A model generated the notes under the pieces. The model worked only from the letters and a program-made list of their open reading frames with translations, searched no databases and had not been told where the DNA came from. Positions 4,491 through 48,787 of a stretch of 64,000 nt of DNA are shown here, in pieces; positions within the stretch are counted from its first letter, which is position 1; each line of letters starts with the position of its first letter. A program made the position numbers and the translations under genes. Origin of the DNA: Bacillota bacterium (GTDB lineage: Bacteria > Bacillota > Dethiobacteria > DTU022); NCBI GenBank assembly GCA_033549065.1, contig JAWSUE010000012.1, positions 5,222 to 69,221 on the forward strand. The letters are read 5' to 3'.

Positions 4491-5327
4491 ATGAAAAGAT
4501 TGGTTGGGAAAGTTGCCCTGGTTACCGGAGCCGGACGGGAAAAGGGAATTGGTTTTACCTGCGCCCGGCGTTTGGCTGAAGAAGGCGCTTCAGTAGCTTT
4601 GGCCGACCTGGCCGTATTGTCAGAACAGGGCAGGGGTAGTGACGAAACTGAAAACCAGTTATATGATCTGACTGAGATAATCAGTGATATGGGTGTTGGA
4701 GCGCTGGCCATAGAGGTTGATGTAACCGATCCTGATTCCGTACAGAAAATGATCGAACAAGTAAAGGACAAATTCGGACGTCTTGATATACTGGTGAATA
4801 ATGCCGGGACAATAATCGACCCTGCACCGCTGGCTCTCACTGATCCGGAAGCCTGGAGAAAAACGATTGAAGTGAACCTGACGGGAACCATGCTCTGCTG
4901 CCGGGCGGCCGCACCGTTGATGATGTGTAACGAGGAAGGCGGAAAAATTATCAACATGTCTTCACGGGCAGCTCGCAGCGGGGCAATCTGGATGCATGCA
5001 TACTGCGCATCGAAAGCGGGAGTGATCGGTTTAACCCGTTCTATGTCTCTTGAGCTGGCTCCCTTTAAAATTTGTGTCAATGCCTTATGTCCCGGAGAAA
5101 TCGATACTGAGATGAAACGGTGGGGTTGGGGTAAGGAAGCCACGATAAAAGGCAAAACTGTAGAAGAGATAGCCGATGAAGCAGCAAAAGCTACCCCGCT
5201 GGGCAGGGTTGGCACTGCTGAAGATGTTGCCGCTGCAGTAGCTTTTTTTGCCTCCCCCGATGCTGACTATATGACCGGAGAGATTTTGAATATTACAGGT
5301 GGAAACGGAATACGTCCTCTACTTTAG
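4491..5327 (+). CDS. SDR family NAD(P)-dependent oxidoreductase
   Basis: Gly-rich TGAGxxxGIG cofactor motif, NNAG, and the YxxxK catalytic motif (YCASK). A GGGAGG SD lies 8 nt upstream. Confidence 0.85.
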   Translation: MKRLVGKVALVTGAGREKGIGFTCARRLAEEGASVALADLAVLSEQGRGSDETENQLYDLTEIISDMGVGALAIEVDVTDPDSVQKMIEQVKDKFGRLDILVNNAGTIIDPAPLALTDPEAWRKTIEVNLTGTMLCCRAAAPLMMCNEEGGKIINMSSRAARSGAIWMHAYCASKAGVIGLTRSMSLELAPFKICVNALCPGEIDTEMKRWGWGKEATIKGKTVEEIADEAAKATPLGRVGTAEDVAAAVAFFASPDADYMTGEILNITGGNGIRPLL

Positions 5328-5397: not shown

Positions 5398-6459
5398 ATG
5401 AGTTTTTACAGGGAAATCAGCAGCCTCTTGAAAGAAGGAAAACCGTCAGTACTGGTTACAGTAATCTCCAGTGATAAAAATTATGATTTAATCGGCAAGC
5501 AGTTGGTGATCAGCGAAGGTAAGATTTTGTACAGTAATGTTAATCAAATGCTGGCCGAAGTGATCTATCAAATAGTTTCGCCAATCGCCGAAGGCGGAGA
5601 AAATTTCACACTCAAAACAGAGCTACCCTCCGGTGATCAGATAGAAGTATTTATCCATGCTTATTCGCCCCATCCCCGCTTGATAATTCTAGGAGGCGGC
5701 CATATTGGGGCTGCTCTCTGCCGGATCGCCTCCAATCTCGATTTTGAAATTATTCTTATCGATGATCGGCCTGCCTTTGCTTCCCGGGAACTGCATCCTC
5801 ATGCCCACCGGTTGATCTGCGAACACTTTGGCGATGCCCTTGACTCTATTGAATCGACTTTCGCCGATTACATTGTGATTGTAACCAGGGGTCATAAACA
5901 TGACCGGTATTGCCTGGAGAAATCGCTGGGGCGGAAAGCGGCATATATCGGTATGATCGGCAGTAAGAGCAGGGTGCGTGCCCAGCTCAACGAATTAAGA
6001 GAATTAGGGTATACGGAAGAAGAGCTTTCCCGGGTTCATTCTCCCATCGGCCTGCCCATCGGCGCGGTCAGTGAAGGAGAAATTGCCATCAGCATACTGG
6101 CCGAGATAATACAGGAAAGAAGAAGCACAAGCAGTGATGAAGCGATCCAACAGGATATCCTTCAAGAGCTGGTTCGCATCGAAGAAGACAAACAGAAAGC
6201 GGCCCTGGTAACCCTGGTTAAAACTCTCGGTTCAACACCCAGAAAAACAGGATCACAACTTCTGATTTTTCCTGATGGTTCGCTAAAGGGAACTATAGGT
6301 GGGGGTTGTTCGGAAGCCGGAGTAAGGCAGGAAGCTCTCACCCGTTTGGATCATCAAGAGCAGGGAGTTATGCGCCTTGATTTAACCGGGGATGTAGCCG
6401 CAGATGAAGGAATGGCCTGTGGAGGGATTATGGAAATCTTTATCGAACTGCTACCATAA
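5398..6459 (+). CDS. XdhC/CoxI family molybdenum/tungsten-cofactor insertion accessory protein
   Basis: A central Rossmann-like segment (LIILGGGHIGAAL) is flanked by XdhC_CoxI-like segments. I prefer the second in-frame ATG at 5398, which has a GCAGGAGG SD 5 nt upstream, over the ATG at 5380. Confidence 0.65.
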   Translation: MSFYREISSLLKEGKPSVLVTVISSDKNYDLIGKQLVISEGKILYSNVNQMLAEVIYQIVSPIAEGGENFTLKTELPSGDQIEVFIHAYSPHPRLIILGGGHIGAALCRIASNLDFEIILIDDRPAFASRELHPHAHRLICEHFGDALDSIESTFADYIVIVTRGHKHDRYCLEKSLGRKAAYIGMIGSKSRVRAQLNELRELGYTEEELSRVHSPIGLPIGAVSEGEIAISILAEIIQERRSTSSDEAIQQDILQELVRIEEDKQKAALVTLVKTLGSTPRKTGSQLLIFPDGSLKGTIGGGCSEAGVRQEALTRLDHQEQGVMRLDLTGDVAADEGMACGGIMEIFIELLP

Positions 6460-18937: not shown

Positions 18938-20512
18938 TTGCAAAACGGAGGTAGTCTTTATACAAAACCAACATTTTTAATTGCTCTTATCGTAATGGTA
19001 ATCTTTGTTTTATTAGGTGCTGCTGCGCCGGAGGCTTTTGGTGTCGCAACAGGTAATGTTTTTAGCTATATGGTTGATTCTTGGGGCTGGTCGTTTATCC
19101 TTGGCACCAGTATCTTTCTTTTTTTGATAGTTTTCTTACTGCTAAGTCCTGTTGGTGAGATTAAACTTGGTGGAGACGATGAGAAGCCCGCATACAACAA
19201 TGAAGTCTGGTTTGCTATGCTCTTCAGCTGCGGCATGGGTATCGGCCTGCTTTTCTGGGGTGTATCCGAGCCGATCTGGCATTACATGTGGCCGCCGCTT
19301 GGAGAAGCTGGTAATGCCGGGACTATTCACGTGGCTATGCGCTATGCTTTCTTCCACTGGGGCTTCCACCCCTGGGCTATTTATGCAGTAGTGGCCGGCT
19401 CACTGGCCTACTTCTCTTACCGCAAAGGTTTGCCCATGCTGCTCAGTTCATGCCTGGAGCCTATCCTTGGCCGTAAAGGAATTGAAGGTCCCTGGGGTAT
19501 TCTGGTAAATATCATCGGTGTATTTGCCACCCTCTTCGGCCTGGCCACATCGTTGGGTCTCGGGGCTATGCAGCTTGGCGCCGGATTGGAAAGCCTTTTC
19601 GGTATTCCTAGCACTCCGGCAATTTGGGTTACTATTGTGATAGTTATAACTGCCGCAGCGGTTATCTCAACTTCGACCGGTATTGATCGCGGCATTAAGT
19701 GGTTGAGCCAGATTAATATCGTGGTAGCCGGTTTGTTGATGCTGTTGGTATTTATTGTCGGTCCGACCCTCTTTATTCTTAACCTTTTAACCCACTCTGT
19801 CGGTGATTATCTGCAGAATATCATCTACATGTCGTTCGGACTTGATGCTGCCGGAGAAAATACTGAAGGTTGGTATGGAGCCTGGACCATCTTCTACTGG
19901 GCCTGGTGGATTGCCTGGGCACCTTTTGTAGGTACCTTTATTGCCCGTATTTCGAGAGGCCGGACGATCCGCAACTTTATTGTCGGTGTTATGCTTGTTC
20001 CTGTTGCTGTCAGCGTTGTCTGGTTCTCCGTTTTTGGTGGTTCAGCCCTCTGGATGGAGCACTTTGGCGGTGGCGGTATCGGGGAAGCAGTATCAGCTGA
20101 TTCCGCGATGGGTTTCTTTGCCTTGTTGCAGAATCTGCCGTGGTCTGGCTTACTGATAGTTGTTGCCATGTTTTCGGTGGCAGTGTTCTTCATTACATCC
20201 TCAGACTCGGGGACCTATGTTAATGGTATGCTTACATCAGGCGGAGATCCTAACCCGCCTCTGCCCCTGAGGATTACCTGGGGAGTTCTTGAAGGAGCTA
20301 TCGCTGCCATTCTGCTCTTTACCGGCGGCGCCGGTGCTTTGGGTTCACTTCAGACAGCATCTGTTGTTGGAGGGTTTCCCTTCATGATTATTATGTTCCT
20401 GATGCTATACTGCCTTTTCAAGTCACTCTATGCAGAGATGCGCGATGGTACTCTACCTCTGGAGAAAAAGCGGATCCAGGATGCTCTGAAGGAATTGCAA
20501 GCTGGTAAATAA
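18938..20512 (+). CDS. BCCT family (betaine/carnitine/choline) transporter
   Basis: Twelve-TM profile and the BCCT signature region WTIFYWAWWIAWAPFVG. TTG start with an AAGGAGG SD. Confidence 0.9.
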   Translation: MQNGGSLYTKPTFLIALIVMVIFVLLGAAAPEAFGVATGNVFSYMVDSWGWSFILGTSIFLFLIVFLLLSPVGEIKLGGDDEKPAYNNEVWFAMLFSCGMGIGLLFWGVSEPIWHYMWPPLGEAGNAGTIHVAMRYAFFHWGFHPWAIYAVVAGSLAYFSYRKGLPMLLSSCLEPILGRKGIEGPWGILVNIIGVFATLFGLATSLGLGAMQLGAGLESLFGIPSTPAIWVTIVIVITAAAVISTSTGIDRGIKWLSQINIVVAGLLMLLVFIVGPTLFILNLLTHSVGDYLQNIIYMSFGLDAAGENTEGWYGAWTIFYWAWWIAWAPFVGTFIARISRGRTIRNFIVGVMLVPVAVSVVWFSVFGGSALWMEHFGGGGIGEAVSADSAMGFFALLQNLPWSGLLIVVAMFSVAVFFITSSDSGTYVNGMLTSGGDPNPPLPLRITWGVLEGAIAAILLFTGGAGALGSLQTASVVGGFPFMIIMFLMLYCLFKSLYAEMRDGTLPLEKKRIQDALKELQAGK

Positions 20513-20547
20513 AGAAAAAGCAATATATAGTAGAGTTAAGGTATATT

Positions 20548-20580
20548 CCGCCGGATGCACTTTGCATCCGGCGGTTTATG
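20548..20580 (+). terminator. rho-independent terminator
   Basis: A CCGCCGGATGCA-CTT-TGCATCCGGCGG hairpin is followed by TTTATG. Confidence 0.55.
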
Positions 20581-20624
20581 CCACTCAATAAAAAAAAGAA
20601 TAGTCAGAAAGGAGTGTTTACTTA

Positions 20625-21257
20625 ATGGCAGATTTTGAATCTTTAGCGGGAGCCATTATTGATTGTAATGCGGCAAAAGCCGGCGAGATAACCCAGCAGT
20701 TGGTTGATGAAGGCGTTAAGCCGACAGAGATCATCAACAAAGGGTTAATCAGCGGGATGAATGTGGTAGGAGACCGTTTCAAGAAAGGCGACATGTATGT
20801 TCCCGAAGTGATGATGGCTGCGAAGGCGATGCATGCAGGGATGAATATTGTGAAGCCCTTGCTGGTGGAAGGTGAGAGTTCATCGACCGGCAAGGTAATA
20901 TTGGGCACGGTAGCCGGGGACCTTCATGACATCGGTAAGAACCTGGTTGGGATGATGATGGAATCAGGTGGGATGGAAGTAGTGGACTTAGGTGTGGACG
21001 TTACACCTGAGAAATTTGCGCAGGCTGTCAAAGAGCACAAGGCGCAGGTAGTGGGCTTGAGTGCGCTGTTGACGACGACGATGCTGGCGATGAAAGATAC
21101 GATTGAAGTATTGAAGGAAGAAGGTTTAAGAGATTCGGTCAAGGTTATAGTTGGTGGAGCGCCTGTAACCCAGGACTTTGCCGATGAGATTGGCGCCGAT
21201 GGATGGGCACCTGATGCCGCTTCGGCCAAGGACCTTGCCCAGAAACTGGCCGGTTAA
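20625..21257 (+). CDS. cobalamin (B12)-binding corrinoid protein of methyltransferase systems
   Basis: A B12-binding N-terminal helical cap plus a Rossmann domain carrying the DxHxxG motif (GDLHDIGKN). Confidence 0.9.
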   Translation: MADFESLAGAIIDCNAAKAGEITQQLVDEGVKPTEIINKGLISGMNVVGDRFKKGDMYVPEVMMAAKAMHAGMNIVKPLLVEGESSSTGKVILGTVAGDLHDIGKNLVGMMMESGGMEVVDLGVDVTPEKFAQAVKEHKAQVVGLSALLTTTMLAMKDTIEVLKEEGLRDSVKVIVGGAPVTQDFADEIGADGWAPDAASAKDLAQKLAG

Positions 21258-21301
21258 TCTAACCGCTCTTAAACCAAGTGGAGAAAGGAGAATTTGGGAA
21301 A

Positions 21302-22756
21302 ATGAAAAGTTGCTTTAAAGCACAGGGATCAACTTTCCTGCAGGTTCTCTCGGACGACCAGTGCCGGCGGTTGGTAGCAGCGGCGATGGAAGTTTTGGAA
21401 AGGACCGGAGTTACATATTTAGACGATGAAGCAGTTGACAGGATGAAAAAAGCAGGTTGCTATGTAGACGGTAAAAGGGTTCGGATACCTTTTAAGCTGG
21501 TTGAGAAAGCCCTGAACACTGTTCCGAGAAAGGTTTCACTCTGCAACAGCAGGACCGGTAAAAGGGTTATGGAGATGGAAGGCGGGAATGCTTATTTCGG
21601 AACCGGTTCCGATACTCCCAATTTTATTGATCCTTACACCCAGGAGAGAATTAAAGCAAGCAGGAAGACTGTTCAAATGGCCACCAAGGTCATCGATGCA
21701 CTTCCCAATCTTGATTTTGTAATGTCCCTGGGTATTGTCCAGGATGTTCACCAGCTGGTATACGATCGCTACCAGTTCGAAGCCATGGTCCTGAATACTT
21801 CCAAGCCGATCGTTATTACTGCGATCGATGAGCCAGGCTATTCAGATATCATCAAAATGTGCGAGTTGATAGCCGGCGGGGAAGAGGAATTGAGGAACCA
21901 CCCGTTTCTTACTCTTTATGCAGAGCCGATTTCACCCCTGCAGCACCCCAATGATTCAGCGCGCAAGCTGATGTTGGCAGCGAAGAAGGGACTACCTGTT
22001 GTATATACACCGTGTATCATGGCCGGCGGAACAGTACCGGCTACACTGGCCGGAGCCATGGCTAACGGTCTGGCCGAAAGCCTGAGCGGTTTGGTTCTTA
22101 ACCAGGTGACATCGGAGGGCAGCCCGTTCATCATGGGCGGCGTATTTACCGTTATGGATATGCAGACCACCATATTCTCATATGGTTCACCGGAATTTGA
22201 TCTGATGATGGCTGCTCTGGCAGATATTCATCATTATCTTGATCTTCCCATGTTCGGCACCTGCGGATGTACTGATGCAAAAGTTGTTGACGAACAGGCT
22301 TTGATTGAGGGTGCAATGTCAATTCTGCTTACAGCTCAGGCAGGAGCAAACCTGAACCATGATGTGGGATATATTGAGCATGGTAATACAGCATCGCTTG
22401 AATACCTGACAATCTGTGACGATTTAATTGGTATTGCCCGCAAGATAGTCAGCGGTATTGAGGTAAGCGACAAAACCCTGGCCCTTGATGTAATTGACAA
22501 AGTTGGCCCGGGCGGACACTTCCTCGGTGAGGAGCATACAATGAAGCACTTCAAGGAGCAGACCTGGTATCCCCGCTTGTTTGAGCGCCAGATCTATGAA
22601 AATTGGGCTGCCGACGGTTTTAAAACTCTCTTTGATAAAGCCAATGATAAAGTAATAGATATTCTCGAAAATTATGAACCTGAGCCTCTGCCGAAAGATG
22701 TGCAGCAGAAGATCAAGGATATCATTGCCGAAGCAGAATCTAAATTGAACAAGTAA
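21302..22756 (+). CDS. MttB-superfamily methyltransferase, pyrrolysine-free paralog 2
   Basis: Full-length MttB-family similarity with no amber codon. I prefer the ATG at 21302, 11 nt after GAGAAAGGAG, over the RBS-less GTG at 21278. Confidence 0.85.
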   Translation: MKSCFKAQGSTFLQVLSDDQCRRLVAAAMEVLERTGVTYLDDEAVDRMKKAGCYVDGKRVRIPFKLVEKALNTVPRKVSLCNSRTGKRVMEMEGGNAYFGTGSDTPNFIDPYTQERIKASRKTVQMATKVIDALPNLDFVMSLGIVQDVHQLVYDRYQFEAMVLNTSKPIVITAIDEPGYSDIIKMCELIAGGEEELRNHPFLTLYAEPISPLQHPNDSARKLMLAAKKGLPVVYTPCIMAGGTVPATLAGAMANGLAESLSGLVLNQVTSEGSPFIMGGVFTVMDMQTTIFSYGSPEFDLMMAALADIHHYLDLPMFGTCGCTDAKVVDEQALIEGAMSILLTAQAGANLNHDVGYIEHGNTASLEYLTICDDLIGIARKIVSGIEVSDKTLALDVIDKVGPGGHFLGEEHTMKHFKEQTWYPRLFERQIYENWAADGFKTLFDKANDKVIDILENYEPEPLPKDVQQKIKDIIAEAESKLNK

Positions 22757-35998: not shown

Positions 35999-36092
35999 GG
36001 GAGTAGTTAGCGGCCTGGTGGCGTTCCTGGACTTCAAATCCAGTGGCAGGGCAGCCCCCTGCGGTGGGTTCGATTCCCATCTACTCCCGCCA
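35999..36092 (+). tRNA. selC: tRNA-Sec (selenocysteine tRNA), anticodon UCA
   Basis: 94 nt with an 8-bp acceptor stem (GGAGTAGT/ACTACTCC), anticodon loop CUUCAAA, a long variable arm, a GGTTCGATTCC T-arm, discriminator G and an encoded CCA. Confidence 0.85.
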
Positions 36093-36093
36093 A

Positions 36094-36130
36094 ATCTTGA
36101 CGGGGTCAATTATTCAAGATCCGACCCCAT
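36094..36130 (+). terminator. possible terminator hairpins downstream of selC
   Basis: The ATCTTGA...TCAAGAT and GGGGTC...GACCCC inverted repeats are followed by a T-containing tail. Confidence 0.35.
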
Positions 36131-36198
36131 TCTTGCCAATTCACAATTGATATCCCGTGCTTATATTTTATAACTTAAATTTTAAGGGGTTTGATGAT

Positions 36199-36537
36199 AT
36201 GAAGGACAAATTAGTTGTTTTATGGATTTCTCGGGACGAAGAAGCTGCGATTAATATGGCATTTATGTACGCTAGAAATTCAAAATTAAAAGGCTGGTGG
36301 AACGAGGTTGAATTAATAATATGGGGCCCTTCGGCAAAGGTTGCTTCAGAAAATAAGAATATACAGGAAGAACTGAAAGAATTAAAAAATGCAGGAGTTA
36401 ATGTAAGGGCGTGTAAGGCCTGTGCTGATAAGTATCAAGTGAGTGAAAGATTAAGTGCCATGGATATTGAAGTGCTTTATATCGGATCGATTTTAACCGA
36501 TGAATTAAAATCAGGAACAAAGGTTATAACAGTATAA
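36199..36537 (+). CDS. DsrE/DsrF-like family small protein
   Basis: About 112 aa with a DsrE-like fold signature and a conserved Cys. I prefer the ATG at 36199, which follows an AAGGGG SD. Confidence 0.45.
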   Translation: MKDKLVVLWISRDEEAAINMAFMYARNSKLKGWWNEVELIIWGPSAKVASENKNIQEELKELKNAGVNVRACKACADKYQVSERLSAMDIEVLYIGSILTDELKSGTKVITV

Positions 36538-36609
36538 GAGTAACGGGGTCAGGCCTAAAAAGTGATAATTCAAGACCTGACCCCAGCTTACAGTCTTACT
36601 TAAGCCGAA

Positions 36610-37140
36610 ATGAGGTGTATAGTGGAAATGGGTACAAAAGAAGAGGTTCTCGAGGGTTTATATCAAAAAGGCTTCATGTTTGAAAGGAATAATCATGGAT
36701 GTGGGCAGTGTACGGTAGCCGCAATCCAGGAATTTTTTGATGTAGATGATCTGATCTTTAAATCTGCCTCAGCTTATGCCGGTGGGATTGCATCGGTCAC
36801 AAACGGTTATTGCGGAGCTTTTAACGGAGGGGTTTTGATTCTTAACTATTTTTTTGGCAGAGAGAAAAAGGATTTTGAAAACCCTGATGCGATGGATAAG
36901 GCAAAAGAGATTGTTAATATCTACAAAGATCGATTTTTCCAGAAATTTGGCGGCTTCACATGTGGGCAGGTTCAGACTAAAATTATGGGGCGCTCATTCA
37001 ATACCGCAGATCCTGAAGAAAAAGAGCAATTTATCCAGGCGGGGGCATATGATGACAAGTGCACGAATGTTGTAGGAACCGCTGCTTCCATCGTAGGAGA
37101 AATTTTACTTGACAACAATATACCATTGAAAAAAGGGTAA
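36610..37140 (+). CDS. C_GCAxxG_C_C family putative redox protein
   Basis: A CGQCTVAA segment resembles the family's Cys motif. 176 aa; the start is uncertain. Confidence 0.45.
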   Translation: MRCIVEMGTKEEVLEGLYQKGFMFERNNHGCGQCTVAAIQEFFDVDDLIFKSASAYAGGIASVTNGYCGAFNGGVLILNYFFGREKKDFENPDAMDKAKEIVNIYKDRFFQKFGGFTCGQVQTKIMGRSFNTADPEEKEQFIQAGAYDDKCTNVVGTAASIVGEILLDNNIPLKKG

Positions 37141-46017: not shown

Positions 46018-46047
46018 TCGACAAATCTGATGATAAGGAGAACCGCA

Positions 46048-46560
46048 GTGGATCTGAAGAAGTTTAGTCGTGAAGAACTGGAGCAGTTGTTGAGTGATTT
46101 TGCAAAGAGGTGGTTGGCTCATGATGGGCTTTGGTTCCAGCAGGTCGAAAAAGCTCATGGTATGGATGAAGCTATCAGACTGGATATTGGAGCCTGGGAA
46201 CGTTTTACGGTAATTGAAGCTGAAAGAATTATGGCCTTTCTCGGGATTGGGAAGGGAGGGGGCTTGTCTGCCTTGAAGAAAGCACTTCAGTTGAGACTTT
46301 ATGCGTTTATAAACATACAGGAAATCTCTGAGCCGGATGAAAGTACAATTATTTTTAAAATGGTGGACTGCAGGGTTCAATCAGCCCGGAGACGTAAACA
46401 GCTCCCCGAATTTCCCTGCCGCCCGGTGGGGCTTGTTGAGTACAGCGGTTTTGCAAAAACCATTGATCCCCGGATTGAAACCAGGTGCCTGCACTGCCCC
46501 CCGGATGAACATCCCGAAGATAGTTTCTGCGCCTGGGAATTTACTTTAAATGAAGAATAA
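46048..46560 (+). CDS. hypothetical protein (DUF-type, Cys-rich C-terminus)
   Basis: The GTG at 46048 has an AAGGAG SD 7 nt upstream. No confident family assignment. Confidence 0.4.
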   Translation: MDLKKFSREELEQLLSDFAKRWLAHDGLWFQQVEKAHGMDEAIRLDIGAWERFTVIEAERIMAFLGIGKGGGLSALKKALQLRLYAFINIQEISEPDESTIIFKMVDCRVQSARRRKQLPEFPCRPVGLVEYSGFAKTIDPRIETRCLHCPPDEHPEDSFCAWEFTLNEE

Positions 46561-46563
46561 GTG

Positions 46564-46597
46564 TTGATTTATTCTAATATTATGATATAATCATAAT
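46564..46597 (+). promoter_or_regulatory. sigma-70 promoter (TTGATT-N16-TATAAT) overlapped by an 8-3-8 inverted repeat ATTATGAT-ATA-ATCATAAT, the putative ArsR-family operator
   Basis: The consensus -10 element is embedded in a near-perfect palindrome immediately upstream of the arsR-like gene. Confidence 0.5.
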
Positions 46598-46618
46598 ATG
46601 TGCAAAGGAGGTCTCCTG

Positions 46619-46912
46619 ATGGATATAACAGCAGAAATGTCTTTGATAAAAGAAAAGGCAAATTTATTGAAGGCACTTTCCAATCCTGTCCGACTCTGTA
46701 TAGTAAAGGAATTATTACACAGAGATACATGCAATGTTTCCAACATGCAAAATTGTATGCAGTTGTCGCAATCAACAGTATCTCAGCACCTGGGAAGGCT
46801 TAGAGATCTTGGTATTGTAGTGGGGGATCGGCGGGGAACAGAAGTATTTTACAGTGTGGCAAGTGAAGAAGCTGCTGCTGTTATCAGGGCTCTTTTCAAT
46901 ATATCAGAATAG
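46619..46912 (+). CDS. ArsR/SmtB family transcriptional regulator
   Basis: A winged HTH (SVSQHLGRLRDLGIV) with metal-sensing-type Cys residues. An AAGGAGG SD lies 7 nt upstream of the ATG at 46619. Confidence 0.8.
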   Translation: MDITAEMSLIKEKANLLKALSNPVRLCIVKELLHRDTCNVSNMQNCMQLSQSTVSQHLGRLRDLGIVVGDRRGTEVFYSVASEEAAAVIRALFNISE

Positions 46913-46926
46913 AGGAGGTTTTATCC

Positions 46927-47241
46927 ATGTTCACTGTAACGGATAAAGCAAAAGAAAAATTTGTTGAGTTTTTAAACGAAGAAGGCAAGAAAGATGCCTA
47001 TGTTCGCATCTATATAAGCGGTGTTGGCTGAGGCGGACCTAGGTACGGCCTGACTCTGGATGAGTCGGTTCAGGAAGAAAAAGATCTAGTTCATGAAACA
47101 GAAGAAGTTAAGTTTGTTTTTGAAAACGGAATTTCTGATTTCCTCAGTGGGAAATTGATCGACTATCATGATGGTCCACGAGGCGGTTTTTCTGTTACTG
47201 ATGGCAGCGGGCAAAGCGGATGTGGAGATTGCAGCTGCTAA
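46927..47241 (+). CDS. HesB/IscA-like selenoprotein (in-frame TGA at 47029..47031 read as selenocysteine)
   Basis: GGAGG is followed 8 nt later by an ATG. The product MFTVTDKAKEKFVEFLNEEGKKDAYVRIYISGVG-U-GGPRYGL...GQSGCGDCSC carries Sec at the position of the first conserved Cys of IscA/HesB proteins. A GACUC-UGGAU-GAGUC hairpin lies about 20 nt after the UGA. A selC gene is present in the window. Confidence 0.7.
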
Positions 47242-47267
47242 ATATTCAACTGGAGGTAATGTAAGTT

Positions 47268-47390
47268 ATGGCTACTGCAGTTGGCGAGGTATATAAGTGT
47301 CAGGTATGCACCAATGTCGTAAAGGTTCTGGAAGATGGGGTAGGTACCCTGGTTTGTTGTGATGAGCCGATGGAATTGGTAGAAGAGTAG
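47268..47390 (+). CDS. desulforedoxin (Fe(Cys)4 rubredoxin-like protein)
   Basis: A 40-aa ORF (MATAVGEVYKCQVCTNVVKVLEDGVGTLVCCDEPMELVEE) that is near-colinear with the classical desulforedoxin CxxC...CC motif. A GGAGG SD is present. Confidence 0.75.
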   Translation: MATAVGEVYKCQVCTNVVKVLEDGVGTLVCCDEPMELVEE

Positions 47391-47425
47391 TCTTCAATAA
47401 GCATAAATTGATCTTTTAACTAATT

Positions 47426-47467
47426 GAGCCGGAGCTTTTTGAACAAAGTCCCGGCTCACTCTTTTTT
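47426..47467 (+). terminator. rho-independent terminator of the arsR-selenoprotein-desulforedoxin operon
   Basis: A GAGCCGG...CCGGCTC hairpin is followed by ACTCTTTTTT. Confidence 0.6.
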
Positions 47468-47518
47468 AAATCGTTAAAATCACAGAATTAAAGACTGATC
47501 TTAAAGGTTTAAAACTGG

Positions 47519-48787
47519 TTATGCTTCCAGCAATTTTTTCATATTAAGTTTTTCGCTGTATTCCGAGTCCATTTCTAGGAGGCCTCCCGGAAATTCGTAT
47601 TTGGCCATCCTTGCTATATATGGATCCGGATCGAAGGATTCAGGCCCGTGGACCCCTTTCAAATCCCAAATTCCTTTGGCAGCCAACTCGAGCATGATTA
47701 CCGGACTGAATGCAGTCTGTGCTACAACAGAATTTGTCCTGTATTTCTTGTAACACTCCTGGTTGTCTGCTACCTGGTAAAGGTAAACTGATCTTCTCAT
47801 CCCGTCTTTTTTCCCGGTTACCCAGGTCCCGGCACAACCTTTACCGATCATTTTTGGTGCAAGTTCAAGGGGGTTCGGAACAACTTTAACCAGAAAATCC
47901 CGTGGAGTTATTTCACTTTCTCCAACCTTGATTTTCCTGGTGGCGCTATCCATTCCGCAGTCCTGAAGATTGAGCAGCAATGCCCTCATTTCACGGGGAA
48001 CCCCGAACTTAAAGGTAACCCTGTTACAGTCGATCTCTCTGGGGATGAGGATAACCTCTTCATGCTCGATATTGATCACTTCAACGTCGCCTATTCCACC
48101 CGGAAAAGAGAAGATCTCCGGTTCAGAAAAAACTTCAGTACAGTACCAGCCGCGATCCTTTTCCCATATAACAGGCGGATTGAGACACTCTTCTATAGTA
48201 GTCCAGATTGAAAAACCGAAAGCTACGCCCTCATACCCGGGTATTTCGTAATTGTCTCCATCCCGAACGTTTATTTCATCGATGGTATCAAAAAGATGCT
48301 TGGCTGCAAACTTGGCATAAACATTGGCCATACCGGGTTCAACTCCTGAACCGACTATAGCCATCAAACCTGCTTTTTGCCAATCTTTATGCCTGGCAAA
48401 CTGGTAGTCACCCAACTTGACGTTGGTCAACTCGTAAGGTTTTTCCGGATGCTTTTTAGATAAAGTCATTGCACAGTCTATATAGCCTACATTGCATTCC
48501 AGGCATGTGTCGAAAATATTTTCGTTGAAAACCGGCTCAACCGCATTCATCACAAAATCAATCTGATGTTTTTTAATCAGCTCTTTGATACTTTCTGCAT
48601 TACCCGCATCAACCTTTTCGGCGACAAACCGGTAGTCGCTACACATGGCGGCAACCTCTTCAGCTCTGGGCAGTTTATAATCAGCCAGGACAACTTTTTC
48701 TGCCCAGGAGCCTTCTTCTCCGGCCCGTTTGATGATCATTGCTGTCGATTGCCCCACACCTCCCGAGCCGATAATAAGTAATTTCAA
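47519..48787 (-). CDS. saccharopine dehydrogenase family NAD(P)-binding protein (carboxy(nor)spermidine dehydrogenase-like)
   Basis: An N-terminal Rossmann fold (KLLIIGSGGVGQ) and a saccharopine-DH C-terminal domain. I prefer the TTG at 48787, 6 nt after GGAGGG. Confidence 0.7.
   Translation of the reverse strand: MKLLIIGSGGVGQSTAMIIKRAGEEGSWAEKVVLADYKLPRAEEVAAMCSDYRFVAEKVDAGNAESIKELIKKHQIDFVMNAVEPVFNENIFDTCLECNVGYIDCAMTLSKKHPEKPYELTNVKLGDYQFARHKDWQKAGLMAIVGSGVEPGMANVYAKFAAKHLFDTIDEINVRDGDNYEIPGYEGVAFGFSIWTTIEECLNPPVIWEKDRGWYCTEVFSEPEIFSFPGGIGDVEVINIEHEEVILIPREIDCNRVTFKFGVPREMRALLLNLQDCGMDSATRKIKVGESEITPRDFLVKVVPNPLELAPKMIGKGCAGTWVTGKKDGMRRSVYLYQVADNQECYKKYRTNSVVAQTAFSPVIMLELAAKGIWDLKGVHGPESFDPDPYIARMAKYEFPGGLLEMDSEYSEKLNMKKLLEA

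Follow-up and report, generated by a model that had tools for sequence, protein, structure and literature searches.

A predicted arsR-hesB(Sec)-dx operon of Bacillota under an ArsR-family repressor with a putative cysteine switch

Which signal would release an ArsR-family repressor whose gene precedes that of a selenocysteine (Sec)-containing HesB-like protein is the question raised by a small locus in contig JAWSUE010000012.1 of a Bacillota bacterium (assembly GCA_033549065.1). The stretch analysed, hereafter the window, comprises 64,000 nucleotides (nt; contig positions 5,222 to 69,221 of the forward strand), and all coordinates below are counted from its first letter. The original prediction, made from the letters alone, saw in this locus an operon composed of arsR, hesB(Sec) and a desulforedoxin gene (dx) and proposed a metal-responsive redox module. 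Taken as a whole, the data are best explained, with about even confidence, by an operon placed under the control of an ArsR-family cysteine-switch repressor that does not sense a metal. The features that define the locus are as follows.

46564..46591, + strand: sigma-70-type promoter with a TTGATT -35 element, a 16-nt spacer and the extended -10 element TGATATAAT
46619..46912, + strand: arsR, encoding a 97-amino-acid (aa) ArsR/SmtB-family winged-helix repressor (NF033788, HTH_5, HTH_20)
46927..47241, + strand: hesB(Sec), encoding a Sec-containing homologue of A-type (IscA/ErpA/HesB-like) carriers, 104 aa (translation, PF01521)
47029..47031, + strand: in-frame TGA read as Sec (codon 35), kept in orthologues
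47050..47068, + strand: hairpin CUGACUC-UGGAU-GAGUCGG resembling a selenocysteine insertion sequence (SECIS), with frozen synonymous sites
47268..47390, + strand: dx, encoding a 40-aa desulforedoxin (PF06397, TIGR00319)
47425..47466, + strand: intrinsic terminator, a hairpin with 14-nt arms (47425-47458) followed by CTCTTTTTT (folding)

Two comparative sets were used, one obtained by scanning genomes with the ArsR alignment (80 loci) and the other by a metagenome scan anchored on HesB (42 loci). Conservation of the gene order in related genomes, which the original prediction had named as a check, was found in both. In the genome set, hesB lies less than 100 nt downstream of arsR in ca. 38 species-level metagenome-assembled genomes (MAGs), with dx coming next in 34; in the metagenome set, arsR is directly upstream of hesB in 34 of the 42 loci and dx is located downstream of hesB in nearly all those having enough sequence. 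Context look-ups with ArsR relatives returned an identical gene order in all three. Among 37 distinct loci, arsR and hesB are separated by 14-96 nt in nearly all (one gave an aberrant negative value) and hesB and dx by 17-79 nt; no internal terminator was found within arsR-hesB-dx, and a hairpin followed by a T-run occurs after dx in 34. Overall, this order, the short gaps and the terminal terminator were seen in roughly 70 genome and metagenome loci, and only one full-length ArsR-HesB locus of the genome set (L022:3626-6279) had no dx detected downstream by tblastn.

In the window, the gap of 14 nt between the regulator and the selenoprotein gene is exactly as first described, with the hesB ATG at 46927, and that between hesB and dx is of 26 nt. 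The dx start (ATG 47268) is preceded by its own GGAGG, again as predicted. The terminator closing the unit is indeed strong, with a hairpin of -19.3 kcal/mol (z = -3.28; 0 of 200 shuffles as stable); its bulge had hidden it from a consensus terminator scan and it was recovered by folding. The start of arsR is most likely ATG 46619 rather than ATG 46598, as AAGGAGG lies 7 nt upstream, and the resulting 97-aa product is identical to a protein deposited for a MAG. Because of the conserved order, the short gaps, the lack of internal terminators and the terminator after dx, the three genes very probably form a single autoregulated operon, judging from comparative sequence data.

The TGA of hesB occurs in each of the 48 genome-set orthologues, at G-V-G-U-G-G-P and with the frame conserved beyond it, and in every locus of the metagenome set save L118, where the reading was ambiguous. 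It is followed by a hairpin with the consensus CUGACUC-UGGAW-GAGUCRG, the loop of which begins 26 nt past the UGA; of its base pairs, five never vary and a further two occur in 42/43 and 33/43 sequences. In 43 distinct sequences, the hairpin codons CTG, ACT, CTG and GAG have zero third-position entropy, whereas the Gly-Gly-Pro codons just upstream reach 1.5-1.95 bits, and since synonymous sites are frozen in the hairpin and free just before it, a constraint acting on the RNA is indicated. The distance from the UGA and the loop G are features that we take to fit bacterial SECIS elements (bSECIS models); an Rfam scan of 46400-47600 came nowhere close to a gathering score and matched no bacterial SECIS model. 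A tRNA-Sec gene is located in the same window, at 35999-36092 (+). The conserved TGA and frame, the constrained hairpin and this tRNA-Sec gene together indicate bacterial Sec decoding, and the selenoprotein call of the original prediction holds: on this sequence evidence, the TGA is a genuine Sec codon. Standard gene calls reduce the selenoprotein to an open reading frame (ORF) of 34-36 aa without Pfam match.

The encoded protein, Sec-HesB, matches PF01521 (Fe-S_biosyn) with 29.2 bits (cut-off 26.3). In alignments, Sec35 takes the place of the first ligand Cys of ErpA (HI1723, GGCSG) and of Cys35 of Escherichia coli IscA, and the C-terminal Cys residues (CGDCSC in the window, with a CDGGCC variant) align with the CGC motif of ErpA/IscA, so that the ligand pattern of an A-type Fe-S carrier is found with Sec in the first ligand position. 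As in known HesB-like selenoproteins (TIGR01911; NF038090, IscA_HesB_Se), Sec replaces the first conserved Cys in a U-x-G-P motif, here UGGP (PMC13188914); such proteins occur in anaerobes and their function is still stated as unclear (PMC1794560, PMC11097638, PMC13188914). NF038090 is the best NCBIfam match, yet neither curated model is reached (48.3 vs 66.35 bits for TIGR01911 and 65.4 vs 85 for NF038090), and the 14 orthologues tested also match the HesB selenoprotein models with best E-values that imply scores below both cut-offs. Generic A-type carriers are equally close, with 59.7 bits for ErpA and 56 bits for TIGR00049; the latter falls under the cut-off of 58.8 for the window protein, and all 14 orthologues match this model. 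Because its scores lie below both curated cut-offs, the Sec-HesB of the operon is, by sequence, a separate Sec clade, which further differs from the known proteins in having kept and lengthened the C-terminal Cys cluster. Among the genome- and metagenome-set orthologues, no relative with Cys in place of Sec was found. A whole-database protein search with the Sec-to-Cys version of HesB gave only eight matches, all with W at the Sec position, a result that says nothing on Cys forms; the W in all these full-length entries (P0121-P0128) is an artefact of gene calling with genetic code 4 on short contigs.

The dx product scores 61.1 bits against PF06397 (Desulfoferrod_N; cut-off 23) and 59.1 bits against TIGR00319 (cut-off 36), in agreement with the desulforedoxin first proposed, and has Cys11, Cys14, Cys30 and Cys31 in the CxxC...CC arrangement of the family. 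It thereby resembles the desulforedoxin of Desulfovibrio gigas and the N-terminal domain of desulfoferrodoxin, i.e. a stand-alone protein of ca. 36-40 aa with CxxC...CC ligands and a distorted Fe(Cys)4 centre. No report of ArsR and Sec-HesB as genomic partners of desulforedoxin (Dx) was found in the literature searched.

The promoter in front of arsR, with TTGATT (46564-46569), 16 nt, TATAAT (46586-46591) and a TG extension, matches 10 of 12 consensus positions and is the best promoter-like site in the 2 kb scanned. A 31-nt block, TTGCATAATTATAATATTATGATATAATAAT, is conserved there in 48 distinct loci, with ca. 1.2-2.6 bits per position against 0.02-0.2 in the flanks. Because the spacer and three positions past the -10 element are conserved beyond what a promoter needs, it is a sound inference from the alignment that this block includes a protein-binding site, as was first proposed for the core promoter. 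Two candidate sites can be drawn within it.

46577..46599, unstranded: perfect 10-3-10 inverted repeat ATATTATGAT-ATA-ATCATAATAT, from the spacer interior across the -10 element to about +1
46571..46586, unstranded: probable family-type operator dyad ATTCTAAT-ATTATGAT, zero spacer, 6/8 complementary, in the spacer and touching the -10 element

The original prediction had placed TATAAT within an 8-3-8 repeat taken as the operator. The repeat is present and is even longer, and the window holds only two perfect inverted repeats with arms of 10 nt or more and spacers of up to 5 nt, against 0.47 expected under a first-order Markov model, the other one being a GC-rich terminator at 20549-20573. As the operator of the family it did not stand, since the exact palindrome is not conserved in orthologues, which average 5.1/9 complementary positions at its centre. 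ArsR homologues with 45-56% identity carry instead perfect 8-0-8 to 12-0-12 palindromes in their promoters, all built on one common half-site, ATTA(T/G)AAT (ATTAKAAT), with the dyad centre 6-8 nt upstream of the -10 element.

L051/L052: perfect zero-spacer promoter palindrome ACATATTATAAT-ATTATAATATGT
L057: perfect zero-spacer promoter palindrome GTATATTAGAAT-ATTCTAATATAC
L055: perfect zero-spacer promoter palindrome ATTAGAAT-ATTCTAAT

Close orthologues have ATTATAAT-ATTATGAT, again with zero spacer, at the corresponding position. The dyad was assigned from these palindromes of distant homologues and not from symmetry scoring, and a zero-spacer dyad of ATTAKAAT-type half-sites is, from these sequences, the probable operator of the family. 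It lies 11 nt upstream of the 10-3-10 palindrome of the window and still over the core promoter; the palindrome shares the half-site ATTATGAT with the dyad and has an extra inverted copy, ATCATAAT, three bases on. Both candidate sites lie on the core promoter and therefore repression by occlusion would follow from either. No convincing further operator copy was found in the window, the only other match being at 5476 with three mismatches.

The regulator itself belongs to the ArsR/SmtB family, with 77.7 bits against the generic model NF033788 (cut-off 55), 33 bits against PF01022 (HTH_5; cut-off 22) and an additional match to HTH_20. An AlphaFold2 model with a predicted local distance difference test score of 93.5 displays the alpha1-alpha2-alpha3-alpha4-beta1-beta2-alpha5 topology, with alpha2 at residues 23-35, alpha3 at 40-47, alpha4 at 51-63, the wing at 67-80 and alpha5 at 83-93. 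A fold search gave template modelling scores of 0.8-0.9, at about 31-38% identity, to known structures of the family, with SqrR, HlyU, PagR, YgaV and BigR on top. The best sequence matches in the PDB are PagR (77 bits), BigR (61), HlyU (56), YgaV (54) and SqrR (51), with NolR also falling in this 51-77 bit group. Three residues are invariant in 44 sequences, namely Cys27 in alpha2, Cys38 just before alpha3 and Cys46 in the last turn of alpha3; distant homologues, down to ca. 45% identity, keep Cys27 and Cys46, and Cys38 is lost in several of them.

The persulfide sensors BigR, SqrR, HlyU and YgaV (cluster 4 of a sequence similarity network) share with this regulator the fold, an AT-rich palindromic operator over the promoter, an autoregulated operon, and rhodanese and persulfide-reductase genes as neighbours (PMC10054925). 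They differ in sensing through a pair of Cys in alpha2 and alpha5, whereas no Cys occurs here after residue 46; their alpha2 Cys (BigR, HlyU) aligns with residue 30, three residues past Cys27, and the BigR model NF040642 gives 61.5 bits against a cut-off of 155. Membership in the BigR/SqrR class fails on these grounds, and an analogous thiol switch is the best reading, by comparison with these proteins.

The gene context is the strongest clue to the sensor type. Sister lineages have, between the genes for this regulator and Sec-HesB, one for an NAD(P)H-dependent CoA-disulfide/persulfide reductase in a fusion with rhodanese, TusA and DsrE2. In five loci (L040, L041, L043, L046 and L121), the gene after the orthologous regulator encodes a protein of ca. 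820 aa that combines a CoA-disulfide reductase (CoADR, of the pyridine-nucleotide-disulfide type) with rhodanese, TusA and DsrE2, and in L049 the regulator is followed by the reductase-rhodanese part, a ferredoxin and then hesB(Sec). Wherever the sequence reaches far enough in these orthologue loci, hesB(Sec) follows the CoADR-type gene; no dx was found after hesB in L049 and L121. For each of the six distant homologues that keep Cys27 and Cys46 (L051, L052, L054, L055, L057 and L078), the gene that follows is of the CoADR-rhodanese(-TusA-DsrE2) type. Co-localisation with rhodaneses and persulfide-reducing enzymes is also published for ArsR-family persulfide sensors (PMC10054925).

Two loci have a particular organization. 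In L052 (227-3502; Clostridia MAG), the frame of the ArsR homologue runs without stop into the CoADR-rhodanese-TusA ORF, which would correspond either to a regulator-enzyme fusion or to a lost stop codon; a second copy in the same MAG (L051) has a stop codon after the ArsR homologue. In L048 (3265-4020), an orthologous ArsR (66% identity) is followed by a fragment of a DsbD/CcdA-type thiol-disulfide membrane protein and not by hesB.

From the sequences, the sensor is likely to be thiol-based and to respond to something other than a metal; that its effector is sulfane sulfur specifically is a tentative assignment, held at somewhat less than even confidence. Several points count against this reading. 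The Cys layout matches no characterised sensor, the alpha5 Cys of BigR, SqrR and HlyU being absent, and the three Cys could form an S3 site for As(III). At the operator, symmetry scores are 0.55-0.70 at many centres of a nearly pure A/T block, the best family-wide centre reaching 8.7/13; such AT-only sequence yields many partial palindromes, which leaves the dyad ambiguous, and the -35 element and the left half-site of the window are not those of the family consensus. The biochemical role proposed below for Sec-HesB is conjecture, and desulforedoxin with an Fe-S carrier would suit an oxidative-stress response equally well. An oxidant is, moreover, a possible signal, since RexT and CyeR, which detect peroxide or disulfide stress, have a pair of Cys at alpha3: both sense via a Cys at the N-terminal end of alpha3, with a partner Cys seven residues on in CyeR (PMC8960804), and Cys38 and Cys46 are eight residues apart here. 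In this alternative, which is the main rival to sulfane sulfur, a disulfide among Cys38, Cys46 and Cys27 would derepress the oxidative-stress kit of a strict anaerobe, Sec-HesB serving in Fe-S repair and Dx as electron carrier. Superoxide reductase (desulfoferrodoxin) contains the Dx domain, and regulators of the RexT cluster are found near NADH oxidoreductases (PMC10054925), the superfamily to which CoADR belongs. RexT and CyeR did not, however, emerge as close relatives by sequence (the PDB matches at E <= 1e-5 do not include RexT), no vicinal Cys-Cys occurs in the present ArsR, and they regulate thioredoxin or old yellow enzyme rather than Sec-HesB, Dx or the CoADR-rhodanese-TusA-DsrE2 fusion. 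Cys38 is the residue missing from several distant homologues that have the same sulfur-enzyme neighbour and still keep Cys27 and Cys46, and the rhodanese, TusA and DsrE2 parts of this neighbour relate to sulfur transfer, not to peroxide handling. A peroxide or disulfide switch is, on balance, unlikely.

The metal-sensing label given originally, by which ArsR would detect Fe, Zn, Cd, As(III) or Sb(III) and the operon would be a metal-responsive iron or redox module, was not borne out and is improbable. It could draw on the generic "metalloregulator ArsR/SmtB" model being passed, on Cys38 occupying the classical alpha3 site position, on a trigonal S3 site made of the three invariant Cys, as As(III) sites arose independently at several positions in the family (PMC10054925), and on the Cys-rich C-terminus of Sec-HesB together with an iron-binding Dx. 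Neither type of metal site (alpha5, or alpha3/alpha3N) was found: alpha5, SEEAAAVIRALF, is without a His, Asp or Glu ligand set, alpha3 begins with C-N-V without a CXC motif, and no Cys occurs in the N-terminus. Among the PDB matches, metal sensors score lowest, with 33-43 bits for CzrA, SmtB and NmtR and 30 bits for the arsenic-responsive ArsR, against 51-77 for the non-metal group in which the nearest solved relatives are found; the BigR, CmtR and Rv2640c equivalog models all score far below their cut-offs. None of ca. 130 loci is adjoined by a metal transporter, an ars gene or a metallothionein, sulfur-trafficking fusions occurring instead. Less probable still is that no effector exists and that the protein is a constitutive autorepressor setting a low expression level, as proposed for PagR and NolR, with structural Cys. 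Some ArsR proteins do lack inducer sites (PMC10054925), and PagR, for which no inducer site is known, is the best PDB sequence match, but at the positions aligned with the three Cys it has other residues, and the invariance of Cys27 and Cys46 down to ca. 45% identity, together with the constant sulfur-enzyme neighbour, suggests a sensory role. At a similarly low level, marginally below the preceding one, stands a selenium-status or trafficking module in which selenide or perselenide would be sensed and Sec-HesB, rhodanese, TusA and DsrE would handle selenium instead of sulfur. The regulated protein is an obligate selenoprotein within its clade, and a tRNA-Sec gene with a DsrE-family gene behind it is located 10 kb upstream, a distance at which proximity to selC is weak evidence. 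An ArsR-family regulator, TsoR ("three selenoprotein operon", NF045707), is already tied to selenoprotein genes including rhodanese- and DsbD-like ones (PMC13188914), but the present ArsR is not a member of it (38.5 bits against a cut-off of 115) and the selenoproteins regulated are others; no selenoprotein was detected adjoining the CoADR-rhodanese-TusA-DsrE2 genes that distant homologues precede.

Under the preferred reading, that of a cysteine switch responding to sulfane sulfur, the ArsR dimer would keep RNA polymerase out by binding to ATTAKAAT/ATTATGAT half-site dyads that cover the spacer, the -10 element and +1. Modification of conserved thiols near the helix-turn-helix would lower its affinity for DNA and release transcription, the candidates being Cys27 (alpha2) and Cys46 (end of alpha3), kept family-wide, plus Cys38 in the clade. 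The most likely modifier would be a persulfide or polysulfide, forming a di- to tetrasulfide link, and less likely an oxidant. A single mRNA, terminated at 47466, would then encode all three proteins. When sulfide or polysulfide causes stress, Sec-HesB may transport, restore or protect Fe-S clusters, or pass on sulfane sulfur via a Se-S adduct, and Dx, as a one-electron Fe(Cys)4 protein, may act as its electron or iron partner; these roles are speculative, being drawn from families and neighbours. A further-reaching version is possible but doubtful: a new ArsR sensory class in which an alpha2/alpha3 triad of Cys27, Cys38 and Cys46 would detect sulfane sulfur or polysulfide, with a Sec carrier using Se as cluster ligand or Se-S relay alongside desulforedoxin. 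If this reading of the triad is true, the locus would give a first functional context to HesB-like selenoproteins and the ArsR superfamily may have a so far unrecognised sensing site.

No description of the arsR-hesB(Sec)-dx module, of its link to the CoADR-rhodanese-TusA-DsrE2 fusion, or of an ArsR sensor with such a Cys layout was found in the literature searched. The earlier statement that the module has not been described applies to the gene combination, which appears to be undescribed, and not to its parts, none of which is new in kind: HesB-like selenoproteins have been on record since the mid-2000s (PMC1794560), and TsoR has a curated NCBIfam model (PMC13188914). Across roughly 80 loci, one clade of HesB selenoproteins is tied to a dedicated Cys-bearing repressor, and also to either desulforedoxin or a persulfide-reductase/sulfur-relay fusion, which offers a testable handle on a selenoprotein function that has been open for about twenty years. 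The MAGs with arsR-hesB are labelled Syntrophomonadaceae or Bacillota, many being from soda-lake sediment, and the sample names of related MAGs suggest that the carriers are uncultured alkaliphilic anaerobes. In such sediment polysulfide should be plentiful, and the sulfur-stress response of such organisms is little known.

Upstream of the operon, a gene encoding a DUF6125 product was found next to the promoter.

46030..46560, + strand: DUF6125 gene, upstream neighbour of the operon (PF19620, 270 bits)

It ends 3 nt before the -35 element. About half of the genome loci and most metagenome loci have it as their immediate upstream neighbour, even when what lies beyond it is not the same (MTTB methyltransferase or alpha-amylase). 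Since no terminator was found between DUF6125 and the arsR promoter in 24 distinct loci, read-through into the operon is possible, and DUF6125 may be a fourth, functionally linked gene. The C-terminal half of its product is Cys-rich, and a PDB sequence search gave no meaningful match.

Another arrangement was observed in L132 (3001-3306) and L133, where hesB(Sec) occurs alone, without arsR, dx or CoADR within 3 kb, and adjoins the same cell-wall amidase gene that is found next to arsR in L043 and L049. The C-terminus of this solitary form has the classic CGCG; a TTGCAT is located ca. 240 nt upstream of the gene, with a palindrome TGATA-T-TATCA some 25 nt later, which is perhaps a relic promoter.

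Finally, two other regions of the window were noted. The tRNA-Sec gene is followed by an ORF of the DsrE family (ATG, 36200-36537, no Sec codon seen) and by one encoding a C_GCAxxG_C_C "putative redox-active protein" (36610-37140), so that region 35999-37140 is another small sulfur or redox cluster beside selC. Region 18938-22756 contains a BCCT-type transporter gene, the GC-rich terminator hairpin mentioned above, and genes for a corrinoid-binding protein and an MTTB-like methyltransferase, and looks like a quaternary-amine methyltransferase system.

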